From a virus (Duplodnaviria > Heunggongvirae > Uroviricota > Caudoviricetes): a stretch of 36,816 nt of DNA. The stretch's first letter is position 1. Every line of letters starts with the position of its first letter. The notes beneath the pieces were generated by a model. That model did no database searches and was not told the DNA's origin. It was given only the letters and a program-made list of their open reading frames with translations. The DNA is taken from IMG/VR virus record IMGVR_UViG_2563366829_000018, positions 1 through 36,816 of that record; one strand, given 5' to 3'. Shown here piece after piece: positions 2,969 through 29,850 of the stretch. A program made the translations under genes and the position numbers.

Positions 2969-3297
2969 CAGTTCACCACCTGCTTAAACTCCGCGCTGAA
3001 CTCAACGCGCAACATCCCGACCCGCGCAGACCACCCGGCACAGGTCACCTTTATCTGCCGGTAGCCATAAGGCGGCGTCCACAGAAAGGCCTTCCAGCCC
3101 CCGTGCTCAGCCAGAAACGACTCCAGCGCCGTGGCCTCCTCACGGGAGACAGACAGCGTCACGCTGTACGTTTTCAGGTCAGCGTTCAGCCCGGCAGGCG
3201 CACGCTGGGAATAGCCATCACCAAAGCGCACCTCCCTGACGGAAGGAGCCGATGTCACATCCATCCCGGGTTTCACTTTCCAGCGGAAGGTTTTCAT
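2968..3297 (-). CDS. M: Minor tail protein M
   Basis: 109 aa, same length as lambda gpM and similar; 1-nt overlap with L. Confidence 0.9.
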   Translation of the reverse strand: MKTFRWKVKPGMDVTSAPSVREVRFGDGYSQRAPAGLNADLKTYSVTLSVSREEATALESFLAEHGGWKAFLWTPPYGYRQIKVTCAGWSARVGMLRVEFSAEFKQVVN

Positions 3298-6200
3298 CGT
3301 CCACCTCCGGAGAACAGACCACCATCACGGGACTGCTGTTGCATAAAGTCCGCTGCTGCTTTTTTCCCGAGATCATAAACCACCTTCAGGGCAGCCGGAC
3401 CTATCTGCCCGTTCGTGCCATCGTTATTGATCTCGATGTTGTACTGCGGGGCAAACATCGCCATACCTGAACCACCAATATCCGCCACAACCCCCAGCTT
3501 ACCGTCAGCACCACGACGCAGAGGCAGAATGGCTTCAGGCCCAGCTTCCCCCATCACACCTGCACCTTTTGCAAAAGCAAAAAACGTCGGACGATTAACC
3601 ACCGTGCCACTGTAGCGACTCAAATCAGCAGACTGATAAACACCACCATCAGCATTGGGCGTCACACTGGCAGTTGCTGCACTCCCCCAGCCAAACGCCG
3701 AACCAATCCCCTTAACTGCCTGCATCATGGACATCTGAGCCATGATTTTTGCCAGATCAGAAAGGAGCGAGGCGGTAAAAGATTTGAAGTTCAGTTTTCC
3801 GGTAGTACAGAACGTTGCCAGTGCATTACCTGCACTGTTAAATGCCGCTGTAAGCATCTGCTCAGCAGTGCCTGCCGCATTATCCGCATCTGCCGTGAAA
3901 TTCTGAAACGCCCGCATAGCACCGTTTTTCCAGTTACCCTGAGCAATTTCAAGCTGTTGCCAGTAACGGTGATTCTCATTCAGTTGTCGGTTCAGGCTCT
4001 CCGTCAGCGCCTGCTCGGCCTTTCTGTAGTCATCCGTGTTATATGTCCCTTTCTGCTCACTATCCCGCCTCAACTGCTCCAGCTGTTGCTGGTATTTCTG
4101 GCGAAGACTCAGTTGTACCTGATATCGCTGCCGCTGCTGATCACCCATACCCACCGTGGCGATATCCAGGTCATGTTGCTGACGCTGAGCGCGCTCTTCT
4201 TCAGCCAGTTGACTGGTCAGCTGAATTGTTTTTTTCTTCAGATCGTTGAGTGCCGTCTGTTTCTGAAGCTCCTGCTGTTTTACATCCAGCAGCGTCAGTG
4301 CCTGAATCAGTTCATCTTTACGGGCCAGCACACTCTTTTCATCTGCCGTCAGTTTTTTCCCGTCCAGATCGCTGATGCGCTGCTGCAGAGCCAGAAGCTG
4401 TTTATGCGCTTCTGTCATCCTGTCAGTGGCAATGCCTGCTGACTGTCTTGCAGCAGCAATCTGTCCTTCCACCTGTGCCTGTTGCTGGCTGTACTGCAGC
4501 AATAACCGGGTGGCCTCATCATTACGGGTTTCGCGTGTTTTTTTCTTACCGGATGCCAGGGCTTTCTCGTAACGTTCATTTTCACGTTGTATCGCAGCAT
4601 CCCTGACAGCCTGATCGGCGTACTGCATGGCATTAATACGCGCAATTTCACGCTGATGTCGTGCAGCTTCCGTTTCATTCATCCGGTTCAGTGCAGCATT
4701 TTCAGCATTACGGCGTTTCTGTTGCTCCTGATAATTCCGCTCTGCCTGCTCTTTTGCATCCTGCAAATCCTTCTGGCGTTTTTTCTCCTGAAGATCGTTA
4801 AGACGCTGCTGATCGTATTCAACCTGAGAAGATGATGCCGTCCAGGGGAGTCTTTTCGCCCGCGACACTTTCTCCTGCAAAGTGGCAATCTGCGCATCCA
4901 GCGAATCTTCACGACCAATATTCATGGCCGCATCCCAGAACTGCTTCCACCAGTCAGACAAAGTTTGCAGCGTACTGCCCAGCGCATTGAGGTTATTATC
5001 AATATCCGCAGTACGCCGACCGGTTTCCTCTGCCAGTGCAGACATGGCTATCCGTGCCGCATCACTGGACCGCCCCTGCTCTCCAAGGACGCGTATCTGC
5101 TCAAGCTGAGTGGCAGTAAGAAAATGCAGCTCATTGTCCAGAGACTTCGCGGCATTTACAGGATCATCCTTCAGCCGCTTAAACTGATTTATGGTATCGC
5201 TGACCGACTGGCCAACCGATCGCTCCATCTGTGCGGCAGCTCTCGCCACCATACCGATATCGTTTCCACGAAATGCACCACTCCCCACCACCTGAGCCAG
5301 CGCACCGGCTGCAGCATGTTGCGTGATACCATTCCCGGAAATAGCACGACTGAGCGTCCACAGCTGCCCGGCAGTGACTCCGGCATAATGCCCCGTCAGC
5401 GACAGCTGGCGGTTAAATTCTTCCCCCTCCTTCTGACCGTCATACCAGGCTTTACCCAGGCCATAGACAGCCGCGGCAATACCGCCAATAACCCCGCCAA
5501 GCATCATGCCTTTCGGTGACATCAATGTGTCTATCCACCCGGCACGGTTAGCCAGCGTTATTCCGGATCCCCTCAGCGCACCTAAATTTCCGCGGGCCAG
5601 TTCACCTATCAGAACGCCTATCTCCTGACGGGCCGCTGCACTTTTCAGCCCCAGCGAATGCGTGGCTTTTCCTGCCTGCTCCATTTTGCGGATATACACT
5701 TCTGCAGCACTGCTTACCCCCAGCTGGGCAGCCTTAGCACGAAGCAACTCAGAAGAAGAAAGATTCTGGCGGGTTGCCTGCTCTTTAAGCTGACGGATAA
5801 ACGCCACTTTCTGTCGGGTAGCCTCTTCCTCAGCCTGTGTAAGAACACGGGTTTTCGCAGTAACCTCAGAAATCAGCGCCAGATAATCCTGCTGACCAAT
5901 CCCGCCACTGTTTCTGGCCTGTCGGATCTGCTGCTGAATACGCTGTAATTCCTGCAGCCCCGCACTGGCCTGTTTCACACTGTCAATCTGACGATAAAAC
6001 GCAGCAGCCGCTTTATCCTGAGCCTCCGCCAGAGCCATGGCCTGCGCCTGTTCCTCGCGCATTTTCTGGCTCAGTGCCTCCATGCGCTGGCGGGTTTTCT
6101 CCACCTCACGGGCCATGCGTTCATGAGCCTGTGCGTTCTTCTCCACCGTCTGCGCATGAACGGATGCGGCTGTTGCAGCCGAAGAAGCCGCCTGCGTTGT

Positions 6201-18198: not shown

Positions 18199-18203
18199 GC
18201 ATG

Positions 18204-18235
18204 TAAAAAGGCCCCAACACATGTGCGTGGGGCCT
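18204..18235 (-). terminator. Intrinsic terminator upstream of the lysis cassette (7-bp GGCCCCA stem, then TTTTT on the minus strand)
   Basis: Read directly. Confidence 0.45.
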
Positions 18236-18434
18236 GAGAGTATACATGGTTTCAGTCAACTGCATGGTGCCGTGTGCCTCCCGGTGAATTCAGTACCAGC
18301 ACCTGAATCCGCGATTATCCCATATACCTACTCGCTGATTGCCCCTCCGCACAGGGGGATTCACCATGCCAGTTTCTTTTGACAAACTCCCCGCAAAACA
18401 GACAACTGTCAACCGTCTGAATTGTGAGACATTT

Positions 18435-18459
18435 AAAAAAAGGCCCGCAAAAGCGAGCC
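18435..18459 (-). terminator. Intrinsic terminator just downstream of the tRNA cluster (GGCUCGC-UUUU-GCGGGCC followed by UUUUUUU)
   Basis: Read directly on the minus strand. Confidence 0.5.
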
Positions 18460-18473
18460 GGGAAAAATAAGTC

Positions 18474-18550
18474 TGGCGCGTTGTACTGGATTCGAACCAG
18501 TGACCGATTGCTTAGAAGGCAATTGCTCTGTCCGGTTGAGCTAACAACGC
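18474..18550 (-). tRNA. tRNA-Arg, anticodon UCU
   Basis: 77-nt cloverleaf folded by hand: GCGTTGT acceptor, anticodon loop CTTCTAA, TTCGAAT T-loop, encoded CCA. Confidence 0.85.
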
Positions 18551-18563
18551 AGGGTACAGATAA

Positions 18564-18640
18564 TGGACCACCATCGAGGACTCGAACCCCGCGCAACCAG
18601 CTTCGAAGGCTGGTGCTCTATCCTGATGAGCTAATGGCGG
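18564..18640 (-). tRNA. tRNA-Arg, anticodon UCG
   Basis: 77-nt cloverleaf folded by hand: anticodon loop CTTCGAA, TTCGAGT T-loop, encoded CCA. Confidence 0.8.
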
Positions 18641-18647
18641 TATGTGA

Positions 18648-18723
18648 TGGTGGCCCTTGCTGGATTTGAACCAGCGACCTGGCGATTATGAGTCGCTCGC
18701 TCTCACCACTGAGCTAAAGGGCC
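18648..18723 (-). tRNA. tRNA with CAU anticodon, ileX-like (Ile2 via lysidine, or Met)
   Basis: GGCCCTTTAGCTCAGTGGTGAGAGCGAGCGACTCATAATCGCC...CCA closely resembles E. coli ileX. Confidence 0.85.
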
Positions 18724-25810: not shown

Positions 25811-26031
25811 GCAGCACCTCCGAGATGCTTCATGTTTTTTCCGGAGCGAAAGGCTATAAGCGGCATACTGACGCGGTAATTACGGCCCAGCGGTTCACAA
25901 ATCACCTTCTGACATTCACGGTCAACCAGGCTAACACGTAGAACATGCCCTGCAGGCGTGGTGTACCACTGACCCGGACGAGGACAACGGAAAGTATGAT
26001 TGGTAAACCGTTTGAAAATATTCCGGATCAT
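25807..26031 (-). CDS. Hypothetical small protein (74 aa)
   Basis: ORF translationally coupled to the O-like gene; no recognisable domain. Confidence 0.3.
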   Translation of the reverse strand: MIRNIFKRFTNHTFRCPRPGQWYTTPAGHVLRVSLVDRECQKVICEPLGRNYRVSMPLIAFRSGKNMKHLGGAA

Positions 26032-27188
26032 TTACGCCCCCTTACCTCTGAAGGGTTCAGCGACAAATTTATGAGACTGGCCAGTAGCGCCGCGTCGTTG
26101 ATGCGGTCATACAGACTTACAGCCAGCGGGGATTCGGCTTTTGCCAACATGGGATAAAGCTGCTGCAGCCAGACCTTGTGGATTACCGACAGGTGGGAGT
26201 AAAGCACGCTGGCGTTATCTGCGGCATCGCTCAGCGTGGATGGCTTTGAAAGCAGTTTTTCCATCTGGTTAAAGGCATTGATGTATGCCTCTTTGAACCG
26301 GGCAGCACGTTTACCCGTGAAACCCATAGCAAGAAACGCAAAACCGTCTCGTGTGATTTGATAGCAAAGGAGCTTGCGTGTACCACCGTTCGGTTGATTT
26401 ACCGAAATCGATGTCTCCGCAAAATTGCGGGCACAAAACTCAGGGGAACAATCCAGAGTGCGGATCTTTTTCAGCACATCGTCGTGACGCTTGGAGAAGA
26501 AGTTGGCAACAGCCAAAGAAGTGGTAACGGCCTGGCCGTTGTCAATGGTGATTTCAGGTTGAGTGAGGGCTGGGATCGTAGCCATGATGGCAGCCTCCGT
26601 TGACAGTGAAAAACTTCCACCACCGGAAACGCCAATTTCACTGGTGGTGAACTGGACGGGGTTGGCGTAACCGGCGTCAACGGAGACCGGCGCACCTTTC
26701 GGTGCCCCCGCCCAGCCCACCATAATCTGGATGTGAGCAAATGCGGACGATAAAAAAGACGCTGGCGCGTCATACATCGCCGTTGACAATTTCAGGACGC
26801 CAATCCCGGCACCCGCTTTATAAGGTGCCTGAACAGTGTAACGTCCCGGAATTGCAGAATCAATATGCTGGTGGTCCTTCACACTCAACAAAATCACGCC
26901 TGAATTTCCACAAAGGACTAAAGCACTCATGCGGGTAGTCTTTGCGAAGATAGATAACGCGCTGTGTTTCTGGCTCCCAACGAATAACATGGACATAAAG
27001 CCCTCTTCCGTCACGAAACCAGCGGTTAAGTTCCTGCACAACTCGCCCCCCACAGTCAGGTAAAGTTCTCTGTGGTTACTTACAGCCAGGTGATTTGGTA
27101 ATCTGCATTCATGCCGTAACAACAGGTGTTCAGCGACGCTGACCACCAGCTGTTGCGACAAACGGTTATTTGCCGTTAAACTATTCAT
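26028..27188 (-). CDS. Rha-family phage regulatory protein with a ~200-aa N-terminal extension
   Basis: Rha-like core (ITIDNGQAVTTSLAVANFFSKRHDDVLKKIRTL) at residues ~210-300; ATGA coupling with the CII-like gene supports the long form; an alternative start at 26585 has a GGAGG RBS. Confidence 0.55.
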   Translation of the reverse strand: MNSLTANNRLSQQLVVSVAEHLLLRHECRLPNHLAVSNHRELYLTVGGELCRNLTAGFVTEEGFMSMLFVGSQKHSALSIFAKTTRMSALVLCGNSGVILLSVKDHQHIDSAIPGRYTVQAPYKAGAGIGVLKLSTAMYDAPASFLSSAFAHIQIMVGWAGAPKGAPVSVDAGYANPVQFTTSEIGVSGGGSFSLSTEAAIMATIPALTQPEITIDNGQAVTTSLAVANFFSKRHDDVLKKIRTLDCSPEFCARNFAETSISVNQPNGGTRKLLCYQITRDGFAFLAMGFTGKRAARFKEAYINAFNQMEKLLSKPSTLSDAADNASVLYSHLSVIHKVWLQQLYPMLAKAESPLAVSLYDRINDAALLASLINLSLNPSEVRGRK

Positions 27189-27742
27189 GCGTTAGTTTCT
27201 CCACAACCAGAAGCAATCGACGCCACGACGCCCGGAGCTGCACACTCGCGGGCGTTACTCTTTTCTGGAGCGCAGAAGATTTTGTAGACCAGTGCTGCAT
27301 GCTCCTGGAGCTTCGAAATTGAAAGATACAGTTCGTCGTTAATTGCTGTCTTCTCATGCGGTTCCACTACACCGTCTTCGATTGCTGAACGAATCTGTCT
27401 GGAATAACTGCCGATCTGTTCAATGACTTCCAGCAGGCGCTGGTTTATATCGGCGTTCTCTACTGCCTCAATTTCAGGAAGCGATACGAACACCCCACCA
27501 GCAGACTGTGCGACAGCATCCGCAATGTAGTGAGTGCCAGCCGCACGCTGTAAAACCATTGCCCATCCCAGCGGGAAAATCTGATCGCCATCTGCACGAA
27601 GGCGGTTGAATAATGCGTTCTCTGTTACATCCAGCCACTCAGCAGCTTCAGCGTAACCCCCCGGCAACGCCGCGATAGTTTTTCTGACAGCTTTCACGTA
27701 CCACTCAGGCTGTTTTTCCACTTTCCAGTGATGATTACCCAC
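27185..27742 (-). CDS. Putative CII-like regulatory protein
   Basis: Position immediately downstream of cro; assignment is by position and weak resemblance only. Confidence 0.4.
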   Translation of the reverse strand: MGNHHWKVEKQPEWYVKAVRKTIAALPGGYAEAAEWLDVTENALFNRLRADGDQIFPLGWAMVLQRAAGTHYIADAVAQSAGGVFVSLPEIEAVENADINQRLLEVIEQIGSYSRQIRSAIEDGVVEPHEKTAINDELYLSISKLQEHAALVYKIFCAPEKSNARECAAPGVVASIASGCGETNA

Positions 27743-27995
27743 GGCTTACCTCCTGTTCCTGTGGTTTAAACCCATTCTGGTTTTGGCTAGATTGAAAACG
27801 TGCCGGATAAAGAATCTGCATTTCGCTGATTTCACCCTTAAAAAAATTGGCCAGACGTTCTGCAAGATCGATAGATGGAATTTGTTCCAGTCTTTCAATA
27901 CGACTCAGCGTCGCTGGATTGACCTGAACGCCCGCAGCAACATGCTGCAAAGTAAATCCGTGCGCCTTACGCACATTCCGTAATGGTGATTGCAT
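27735..27995 (-). CDS. cro: Cro-like repressor (XRE-family HTH)
   Basis: HTH (HGFTLQHVAAGVQVNPATLSRIE); divergent from cI; GGAGG RBS. Confidence 0.8.
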   Translation of the reverse strand: MQSPLRNVRKAHGFTLQHVAAGVQVNPATLSRIERLEQIPSIDLAERLANFFKGEISEMQILYPARFQSSQNQNGFKPQEQEVSRG

Positions 27996-28092
27996 ATAAC
28001 CTCCACATATTGCGTGATGAGCATATTATTTCACGCAAATATTTTGCGCAAGTTGATTTGCTTAACGCGCAATAAAGAAATGTAATAAACGC
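27996..28092. promoter_or_regulatory. Right operator / divergent promoter region between cro and cI
   Basis: Repeated palindromic half-sites (TTGCGTGA...TCACGCAA, CGCAAATATTTTGCG, TTGCGCAA) in the 97-bp cI-cro intergenic region. Confidence 0.6.
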
Positions 28093-28785
28093 ATGAACAT
28101 AGGAAACCGAGTCAGACAACTTCGCCAGGCGAAGAACATGAAAATCGCCGATCTCGCTGAAGCAATAGGAGTGGATGCGGCGAATATCTCACGCCTGGAA
28201 ACAGGTAAGCAGAAACAATTCACTGAACAAGCCCTGAGTAATATTGCCAGGAGCTTAGGTGTTGATATCGCTGATCTCTTTACCTCAGACGTCAAAAGTA
28301 ATACTGTATGTAAAAACAGTATTGGTGAGGATGTTGCGCAGGTGAAGGATGTATTCCGTATTGAAATGCTGGATGTCAGTGCCAGTGCGGGAAATGGCCT
28401 TATCCAGGGCGGTGATGTCATTGATGTGATTCATGCCATTGAATACAGAACTGATAATGCTGTATCGATGTTTGGCGGACGGCCAGCCAATCACATTAAA
28501 GTTATCAACGTTCGTGGGGACAGTATGTGTCCAACCATTGAGCCAGGAGATCTCATCTTCGTTGATATCAGTATCAATCAGTTTGATGGGGATGGTATAT
28601 ATGTATTTGGTTTTGATGATAAAATTTACGTCAAACGACTGCAAATGATACCTGATAAACTGCTGGTAATTTCTGATAATCAGATTTACCGCGAATGGGG
28701 AATTACCAGCGAAAACGAACATCGGTTTATGGTCTTTGGAAAGGTCTTAATCAGTCAGTCACAAACCCTTAAGCGACACAATTAA
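28093..28785 (+). CDS. cI: CI-type prophage repressor (XRE HTH plus S24 LexA-like autopeptidase domain)
   Basis: N-terminal HTH; C-terminal S24-like domain (VRGDSMCPTIEPGDLIFVD ... KIYVKRL); no Shine-Dalgarno sequence upstream of the ATG. Confidence 0.9.
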   Translation: MNIGNRVRQLRQAKNMKIADLAEAIGVDAANISRLETGKQKQFTEQALSNIARSLGVDIADLFTSDVKSNTVCKNSIGEDVAQVKDVFRIEMLDVSASAGNGLIQGGDVIDVIHAIEYRTDNAVSMFGGRPANHIKVINVRGDSMCPTIEPGDLIFVDISINQFDGDGIYVFGFDDKIYVKRLQMIPDKLLVISDNQIYREWGITSENEHRFMVFGKVLISQSQTLKRHN

Positions 28786-28805
28786 CCCCTACCTCAACAT
28801 CAATT

Positions 28806-28830
28806 AGCCACCAGAAGGTGGCTTTTCATT
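28806..28830 (+). terminator. Intrinsic terminator downstream of cI (AGCCACC-AGAA-GGTGGCT followed by TTTTCATT)
   Basis: Read directly. Confidence 0.5.
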
Positions 28831-28839
28831 ACCCACCAA

Positions 28840-28900
28840 ATTGCATATCTCGCAATAAAAACACTTGCATAATGCGCAACTTCATTTTATCTTTCTTTCC
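28840..28900 (+). promoter_or_regulatory. Candidate left operator / pL region
   Basis: Operator-like repeats TTGCATATCTCGCAA and TTGCATAATGCGCAA resembling the half-sites of the right operator. Confidence 0.35.
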
Positions 28901-29487
28901 AGACATACAAACAAGGTACTAACAAAATTTGGTTGTAACACGGCGTATGGCACATGCGTCGTTAGCGGTCTGGTGACGTTAAAGGGGACAATCCACTCCT
29001 TGCTCGGGCAAACAAACCAGGTAGCCGGAATGTGCAAGTCAATGATGATGCTGATAAGACGCCTAACCAGCGTGGCGATCCGGTTTGACGCCTGGGAAGA
29101 GACCAGGGTGCAACGATGAGGGCATTTATGGAACCGCGACAAAGTGTGGTGCCGTAACTGGCTAAGTGCTCTCAGCGTTGTGGTAATCCGCGAAATGGCG
29201 CGGCGGTAAGTATGGCGGGGTTACTCTTTCCCCGTTGAGGACACCGGATTGTCAGGTTGACCATACGCCTGAGTGACAACCCCACCACAACAGCCACTGC
29301 TTTGGCGGTACCAGTTTGTACCCTTGCTTCCGGCTGGTACCGCTCTTTTTACAAAACAGAGAAGAGCATCACCGGACGACGGGCTCATAACCCAATCCAT
29401 CCGGGCGGCTGTCACCGCAGGTGTTCTTCTCTGTTTTGTGGAGAAACCAACCGACCTTGCAGGGTCGGTATGATGAGGAGCAGCAAA

Positions 29488-29850
29488 ATGGCTAGCGTAC
29501 GCAGTACTGATGTGCAGGTATTTATCGTAGAACTGGACGGCGGCGTATTTGAAACCAAACTCGGCGCAGTTCTCAGTGAAGTCGCTTCCGGTGTGATGAA
29601 CACGAAAAACAAAGGTAAAGTCTCGGTCAATCTGGACATCGAACCGTTTGATGAGAACCGTGTGAAAATCAAACACAAACTCTCATATGTTCGCCCGACT
29701 AACCGCGGGAAAATCTCCGAAGAAGACACCACCGAAACGCCGATGTATGTCAATCGAGGTGGTCGCCTGACTATTCTGCAGGAAGACCAGGGACAATTAC
29801 TGACTCTTGCCGGTGAACCTGACGGAAAACTCCGCGCAGCAGGTCGTTAA
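29488..29850 (+). CDS. YfdP-like hypothetical protein (120 aa)
   Basis: GAGGAG RBS; size and position match the yfdP-yfdQ-yfdR-yfdS module of prophage CPS-53. Confidence 0.55.
   Translation: MASVRSTDVQVFIVELDGGVFETKLGAVLSEVASGVMNTKNKGKVSVNLDIEPFDENRVKIKHKLSYVRPTNRGKISEEDTTETPMYVNRGGRLTILQEDQGQLLTLAGEPDGKLRAAGR

Follow-up and report, generated by a model that had tools for sequence, protein, structure and literature searches.

We analyzed a 36,816-nt stretch of prophage DNA (the window) and found that the interval between its cI-like repressor gene and yfdP carries an ordered series of conserved RNA structures: a multi-helix module A, a pseudoknotted domain B, a DicF-type intrinsic terminator T, and a long stem C. 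On balance, we favor the view that this interval serves the repressor-controlled early-left (pL) operon as its untranslated leader and, jointly, forms a small non-coding-RNA operon at its head, with a terminator that attenuates transcription and with processing by RNase III. The initial annotation had described an ORF-free leader where lambda carries rexAB and N, and had suggested a structured RNA, a put-like antitermination element, or a deletion scar. The structured-RNA suggestion proved stronger than claimed: two multi-helix domains show compensatory changes across unrelated phage backbones, and a conserved terminator and a long stem are also present.

The prophage is of the lambdoid SfV/mEp460/cdtI type, and BLAST showed the interval to be 100% identical to E. 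coli O104:H4 chromosomes. Exact TTGC-N7-GCAA sites occur four times in the 36.8-kb window, and three of the four flank cI, at 28058 (OR) and at 28841 and 28865 (OL), in agreement with the placement relative to cI proposed at the outset; therefore, the interval starts at OL/pL. The mosaic boundary relative to phages of other immunity lies at ~28921, just 3' of the OL operators. As a consensus promoter scan left the pL candidate below threshold, marking it as weak, the pL promoter and the start near 28900 were read by eye and are treated as putative. Downstream of yfdP lie yfdQ, yfdR, yfdS, and more genes, up to int. The features of the region are as follows.

27735-27995, minus strand: cro-like gene, diverging from the cI-like gene
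28093-28785, plus strand: cI-like S24/XRE repressor gene
28806-28823, plus strand: intrinsic terminator of the cI-like gene, a 7-bp GC-rich stem followed by TTTTC (the homologous SfII record annotates a terminator)
28841-28855 and 28865-28879, plus strand: OL operators, two exact TTGC-N7-GCAA sites
28865-28893, plus strand: pL candidate, TTGCAT, 17 nt, TATCTT
28941-29178, plus strand: module A, a ~235-nt structured RNA of seven helices including a pseudoknot, from covariation and nhmmer
28941-28961, plus strand: hairpin Ha of A, with the invariant 11-nt loop UAUGGCACAUG
28950-28955 with 29030-29035, plus strand: pseudoknot of A, GCACAU/AUGUGC, joining the Ha loop to a downstream strand
28966-28973 with 29017-29027, plus strand: irregular arm Hb of A
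29059-29073, plus strand: hairpin Hd of A, loop YUCACCA
29091-29107, plus strand: hairpin He of A, loop GAAGAGA
29113-29127 with 29164-29178, plus strand: helix Hf of A, closing a variable insert
29177-29291, plus strand: module B, a 115-nt pseudoknotted domain, from covariation and covariance model R2
29177-29184 with 29284-29291, plus strand: helix P1 of B
29188-29203, plus strand: helix P2 of B
29210-29215 with 29261-29266, plus strand: helix P3 of B
29216-29234, plus strand: helix P4 of B
29246-29254 with 29274-29282, plus strand: helix P5 of B
29304-29350, plus strand: module T, DicF-type intrinsic terminator, stem GGCGGUACCAG / CUGGUACCGC, then UCUUUUU
29351-29439, plus strand: module C, a 21-bp stem capped by two hairpins (dG -47.3, z -6.6)
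29450-29469, plus strand: small hairpin ACCGACC-TTGCAG-GGTCGGT
29475-29480, plus strand: Shine-Dalgarno sequence GAGGAG of yfdP (ATG at 29488, the RefSeq start of the YfdP family protein)

The plus strand from 28895 to 29490 folded better than 100 of 100 shuffled sequences (z -5.1). Taken by themselves, A (MFE z-score -1.4) and B (-1.1) were unremarkable; therefore, the support for these two modules is comparative rather than thermodynamic. Module A was aligned with distant homologs from Klebsiella, Enterobacter, and Salmonella phages and from mEp390, many of which had been fished with an invariant 24-mer of the A region, and the helices were drawn from those sequences. The share of paired cells was 98.3% for the A model (alignment A6, 12 sequences) versus 32-40% in slid controls, and 94.8% for B (alignment A5, 20 distinct homologs) versus 34-55% with slid partners, both percentages being inflated because the homologs had partly been fished with invariant anchors and also supplied the drawn helices. 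Double-sided changes were present at 10 pairs (30 cells) of A and double changes at 8 pairs of B. The covariation check in homologs that had been proposed for this interval thus found conserved structure, with the score reached by 0 of 500 shuffles for A and likewise for B. The pseudoknot of A and part of Hb are invariant and are therefore neither supported nor contradicted by covariation.

Module B consists of a closing helix, two hairpins, and two crossing helices, which form a pseudoknot. Compensatory changes in B converted GUAUGG/CCAUAC to GCAUGG/CCAUGC and CGGGG/CCCCG to CUGGG/CCCAG and, for B in P1, UUGUCA/UGACAA to UUGCCA/UGGCAA. Because many G.U pairs of the B closing helix would become A.C on the opposite strand, the plus strand was taken as the RNA strand; more generally, the structures of A and B contain many G.U pairs that would read A.C there. 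Each module was detected once in the window, A at 150 bits with nhmmer and B at 141 bits with model R2. A genome-contig scan for a 24-mer of A was uninformative, yielding one locus. Against Rfam 15, modules A, B, and C had no match in the window (at gathering thresholds and at E<=10) or in 13 homologous loci (at gathering); the scans of the window and these loci returned only tRNA, C4, isrK, STnc100, and int-alpA, all elsewhere. A tRNA-like reading of B was rejected: ARAGORN found nothing, and a CCA-type 3' end is not conserved.

Elsewhere in the window, the Rfam C4 antisense RNA (81 bits) and IsrK (62 bits) matched at 26640-26828 (minus strand), inside the ORF at 26028-27188 (minus strand) and within the N-terminal ~200 codons of the RefSeq 'Rha family phage regulatory protein'. 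The true start of this protein is probably near 26590, with a P1 immI-like RNA block before it, and mEp460 has the same C4/IsrK-Rha arrangement. An STnc100 sRNA match (129 bits) at 18199-18723 (minus strand) adjoins the tRNA genes Met-cat, Arg-tcg, and Arg-tct.

Relatives of A and B recur in unrelated backbones. Positions 28940-29183 are ~82% identical to intergenic DNA of the epsilon15-like phages TL-2011b and phiV10, directly 5' of tRNA-Arg, and the first part of A is ~79% identical to the tRNA-Ile-ban interval of P1-like plasmids; further carriers of A are P1/P7 and phages of the epsilon15-like, Klebsiella, and Enterobacter groups. B (29177-29283) is ~89-93% identical to positions 2501-2607 of the Qin locus (L009), in the ydfC-dicB spacer directly 5' of dicF, and 75% identical to P1 sequence just 3' of the C1-controlled Pban promoter. 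The 12-mer TCTGGTGACGTT, identical to the 5' seed of the 53-nt DicF, is present within arm Hb of A (28969-28980) and could be there by chance or as a recurring RNase E/seed motif. In P1-like plasmids (L008 ~3195-3215), ATTTTCTGGTGA lies 3' of module A, just before ban. In the Salmonella phage SPN1S (L240 ~1610-1720), the Hf-closed insert contains the tRNA-like T-arm sequences GGTTCAATTCC and GTTCGATTC, and a tRNA lies at 1726-1799.

Module T starts 13 nt 3' of B. The hairpin GGTACCAG...CTGGTACC named in the initial annotation exists, at 29304-29343 (dG -22 kcal/mol, z -3.2). The boxA-like string GCTCTTTTTACAA (29342-29354) reported with it is also present, but it is the 3' arm of the T hairpin plus the U-tract and is not conserved as a boxA in the homologous Qin, P1, and F1055 loci; the boxA reading was dropped for these reasons. 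Nor was a boxA found with a boxB ~8 nt later that has a 5-nt GNRA-like loop, as the 21-bp stem C follows GCTCTTTTTACAA. Among ~130 B-containing loci, an intrinsic terminator followed B, at a distance of ~15-60 nt, in nearly every distinct downstream context. The terminator was canonical DicF, one of several DicF-like variants in which stem changes compensate one another, or, for P1, a hairpin of unrelated sequence. T was the only strong intrinsic terminator found on the plus strand of the early-left region through int. The T loop UUUGUACCCUUGCUUCC (29315-29333) is CU-rich, as in other DicF-like variants (UUCCCUU), and by eye it is partly complementary to the yfdP RBS region GGAGCAGCAA (29475-29487); anti-SD pairing between the two sequences, in cis or in trans, is possible. 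T was also considered as an AgvB/AsxR-type anti-sRNA or as HnrS, and these readings were rejected, since those RNAs sit in late or moron regions.

Conservation of stem C extends over 32 distinct sequences, of which the most divergent (L167) carries a compensatory change. By analogy, C is presumed to be an RNase III processing site. Its Qin counterpart, a 27-bp stem, starts directly 3' of the DicF U-tract and is complete just ahead of the dicB RBS. Of the smaller hairpin ACCGACC-TTGCAG-GGTCGGT, which had been listed among the stable ones, the existence was borne out and the stability was not: it is real, yet weak (dG -13, z -2.2).

BLAST against phages and E. coli genomes showed that sub-segments of the interval recur in unrelated backbones. 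Of 5426 complete E. coli genomes, 999 carry 80% or more of the interval, which is also found in infective phages (mEp460, cdtI, Stx2c phages, and Ayreon). The order of A, a slot, a DicF-like terminator, a long stem, and an ORF is kept in lambdoid leaders and in epsilon15-like phages. Counted in non-redundant contexts, the slot after A holds B (34), cassette D (~26), or a genuine tRNA-Arg (29), with a terminator hairpin after every one of these that was examined. Because a tRNA can occupy the slot, its contents are probably stable-RNA cargo released by processing. Cassette D, ~130 nt in length (GTTGTGGTGAATGCGCAGGCTGATGCGCG...CACCACAAC), has the same closing stem, GUUGUGG/CCACAAC. D replaces B in mEp460 (L001 ~3395-3530) and follows A in Enterobacter phage Tyrion (L241 ~1650-1800); in Tyrion, an int-alpA RNA (RF02996, 44 bits; L241 2598-2662) is located 3' of the A-D unit in the same island. 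In Qin (L009 ~2705-2735), a D-like start is found within the long stem after DicF.

The K-12 counterpart of B+T has probably been seen as an RNA. Northern blots revealed a stable 190-nt DicF that extends from an RNase III-made 5' end to the DicF terminator and that RNase E turns into the 53-nt DicF (Ragunathan et al., 10.1101/2023.04.14.536235), and the RNase III cut giving the 3' end of the 72-nt DicF was placed in the Qin stem after DicF (PMC5069750). Counting 190 nt back from the DicF 3' end leads to L009 ~2500, the first base of B (nhmmer hit 2498-2618). This length match suggests that B plus DicF is the published 190-nt RNA, and B+T of the window (~176 nt) would therefore be a variant of the long DicF form. 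As in that long form, a B domain with a conserved fold is joined to a terminator hairpin in the window (R2, 141 bits). T also holds the genomic position of DicF, 3' of the B block and 5' of a long stem in a repressor-controlled prophage operon (alignment A1; folds), and keeps the DicF 5' terminator arm UUUGGCGGUAUCAGUUU, as UUUGGCGGUACCAGUUU, and the U-tail, with the stem and UCUUUUU following. The single-stranded 5' seed of DicF made by RNase E, UUUCUGGUGACG, is missing, and a 19-nt gap relative to Qin falls exactly there (alignment A1). RF00039 (DicF) had no match in 28700-29600 even at E<=10, in a search that scored the positive control, K-12 DicF, at 76.7 bits. In Qin, a long duplex is predicted 5' of B that takes in the first strand of the B closing helix, and this duplex is a plausible RNase III substrate. 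Helix Hf of A holds its position in the window, where it is a candidate duplex for a putative RNase III-made 5' end of B+T.

In the non-coding-RNA operon that we favor, RNA polymerase would start near 28900 once the cI-like repressor leaves OL, and would transcribe A and then B. A share of the transcripts would stop at T, as RNAs ~450 nt long. If these are processed like the Qin dicBF transcript, RNase III would cut the Hf duplex at the A/B junction and thereby free A (~270 nt) and B+T (~176 nt), the latter as the counterpart of the 190-nt DicF. The roles given to RNase III and RNase E are borrowed from the Qin literature, and the length of Hf, only ~11-15 bp, is short for RNase III and counts against the model. 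Because the 19 nt with the RNase E site and the 5' seed are missing, B+T may be the mature form; it would end in a hairpin and U-tail typical of Hfq-binding sRNAs, with a CU-rich loop, and with the DicF 5' seed lost it could be inert. A and B would then act in trans as stable RNAs. Polymerases reading through T would continue into yfdPQRS and on to int; since T would terminate a share of the transcripts while the rest read on, it would also attenuate early-left expression. In the readthrough RNA, stem C would form from the U-tract onward and would probably be cut by RNase III, parting the RNA part from the mRNA.

We consider it rather unlikely that A and/or B instead replace N as cis-acting, protein-independent processive antiterminators with a put-like function and an unrelated sequence, modifying RNA polymerase so that it passes T and any later terminators in this N-less lambdoid group. 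Casjens and colleagues described related yfdPQR-type phages without N and speculated on a put-like mechanism (PMC12315714). Consistent with this idea, there is no N-like ORF in the leader or among the ten early-left ORFs through int, in which a PHROGs scan found no antiterminator; A and B lie just 3' of promoters under repressor control, namely pL here and in mEp390 and Pban in P1, and an intrinsic terminator follows B within ~15-60 nt. However, put family membership, as initially suggested, did not hold: a covariance model (R1) built from 8 put RNAs (alignment A4) and searched with filters off had no hit in 28831-29487, its best match in the window (9 bits, E 0.23) being at 27095-27192 on the minus strand, at the ymfL/Rha junction of the pR operon. 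The put two-stem motif CGAACGGC...GUCGG...GGCGGG.UCAGGAUGA..GGCAAU was absent from the stretch, and BLAST of put RNAs returned only 7-9-nt chance words. No putL/putR-type pair was found, as A and B are single copies in the window and neither has a second copy on the pR side, unlike putL/putR and nutL/nutR. The antiterminator reading is further weakened by the replacement of B in its slot by tRNA-Arg or cassette D, by the epsilon15-like phages, in which the A-slot-T unit is a small island with no long operon 3' of it, and by K-12, in which termination after B is efficient, to judge from the accumulation of B+DicF as a terminated 190-nt RNA.

At a similarly low level of confidence, A and B may be regarded as new structured phage RNA classes that act on host machinery, forming an RNA-only antitermination or anti-Rho device unrelated to put; alternatively, A may be expressed together with phage tRNAs as a large decoy or a ribozyme-like RNA. 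If A and B did form an antitermination or anti-Rho device, the N-less SfV, mEp460, cdtI, and Stx2c phages would use it to express genes past a built-in terminator, and the P1 ban operon and the epsilon15-like morons would do likewise.

Markedly less probable is a riboswitch-like role, in which B (or A) senses a ligand or host factor that decides whether T forms and thus gates early-left expression. B is a compact pseudoknot with a terminator directly after it in four phage types, and by eye its GGCGGUA resembles the T 5' arm and could compete for the T 3' arm. In P1, though, this alternative pairing cannot form, the terminator sequence being unrelated. Nor was a conserved antiterminator helix found; a tRNA can take the B slot, and B persists within a stable processed RNA, all of which argue against a sensor.

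A protein gene concealed in the stretch, whether for an N-like protein or for a small leader peptide with a non-canonical start, is highly improbable. Five mechanical ORFs of 66-151 aa lie in or overlap the stretch, and 'hypothetical proteins' have been placed here, on one strand or the other, in several phage records. These annotated ORFs disagree in strand and length between records, however, and the five mechanical ORFs have no Pfam match, the sole hit being at chance level (E=0.065). As the initial annotation had stated, 28786-29487 contains no credible ORF, only mechanical ones without a Pfam match or arginine-rich motif, and no arginine-rich N-like segment is present within the stretch. 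RefSeq/PGAP places zero features in the ~700 bp separating cI from yfdP. Moreover, homologs are separated by frame-breaking indels, mostly not multiples of three in the first 190 alignment columns, and base-pairing rather than codons governs conservation. More improbable still is a deletion scar or decaying junk after loss of a rex- or N-type gene, for which the position matching lambda rexAB and N might speak; it is refuted by the conservation pattern, as the modules are conserved in ~1000 E. coli genomes and many phages, with 100% identity in many O104:H4 genomes, persist in infective phages, and retain compensatory changes down to 71-82% identity. Hidden coding and a deletion scar are thus essentially excluded.

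These results reassign a widespread 'empty' interval, present in Stx2c, cdtI, and SfV-type phages, to conserved RNA genes. The K-12 region 5' of dicF becomes a conserved pseudoknotted domain common to P1, and the 190-nt DicF, so far treated only as a processing intermediate, gains a structural identity. A ~235-nt multi-helix module is defined in the well-studied phages P1/P7, phiV10, TL-2011b, and SPN1S, together with a cassette slot in which tRNA-Arg, B, and D interchange. Early-left control in N-less lambdoid phages is thereby made testable as attenuation at a DicF-type terminator, with or without RNA-mediated readthrough. The dicF locus type and the 'dicF-like region' of the P1 annotators were already known. 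The fold of B and its place as the 5' domain of the 190-nt DicF were not found in the searchable literature (older structural drawings may exist), nor were module A and the cassette slot, and the interval apparently contains at least one undescribed structured RNA family.

Among known systems, the Qin dicBF operon shares several elements with the window. B adjoins dicF there, the terminator position is equal, and UUUGGCGGUAyCAGUUU and a U-tail are common to both; in both, a long stem starts from the U-tract and closes before the next RBS, in a repressor-controlled early-left-type operon. In contrast to Qin, the window does not have the 19 nt UAUCAAUUUUCUGGUGACG, comprising the RNase E site and 5' seed of the 53-nt DicF, and the loop and 3' arm of T are unlike those of DicF. 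The unit of the window directly follows pL and is preceded by A, whereas that of Qin follows ydfABC. Phage P1 also carries the B domain, with compensatory changes in B helices P1, P3, P4, and P5, and has it under phage-repressor control: B begins ~26 nt from the Pban start, which C1 controls, and together with the intrinsic terminator that comes next makes up a complete unit of ~180 nt. The P1 terminator, however, has no DicF-like sequence, and A lies apart from B, 2 kb downstream, between tRNA-Ile and ban. The annotated 'dicF-like region' of P1 (NC_005856 misc_feature 68791-68892) covers only part of B plus the terminator and names a sequence similarity, with no structure or function.

Like the put RNAs of HK022 and HK639, the modules described here are structured RNAs just 3' of pL in N-less lambdoid phages. 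The put RNAs differ in being ~70 nt long, with two stems, and in occurring in both early operons, whereas A and B (235 and 115 nt) are pseudoknotted, single-copy, and without a sequence or structure match to put. The put RNAs suppress termination in cis, working on RNA polymerase by way of its beta' zinc-binding domain. Phage T4 produces species 1 and 2, or RNAs C and D, which are stable RNAs in phage tRNA clusters. A lies directly 5' of tRNA-Arg in epsilon15-like phages and 3' of tRNA-Ile in P1, and a likeness to these non-tRNA structured RNAs, which are co-transcribed and co-processed with phage tRNAs, is drawn by analogy only, a relationship in sequence not being expected. In lambda, a long untranslated pL leader carries nutL and an RNase III hairpin before N. 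The window resembles it in having a long untranslated pL leader with an RNase III-type stem just 5' of the first gene's RBS, and He (CCUGG-GAAGAGA-CCAGG) is superficially like boxB (GCCCU-GAAGA-AGGGC). Unlike lambda, it has no N protein, its boxA-like string is the tail of a terminator, and the He loop is 7 nt long and lies inside a larger fold. At the position of the lambda N gene, the phage described here would thus carry an RNA-producing leader.
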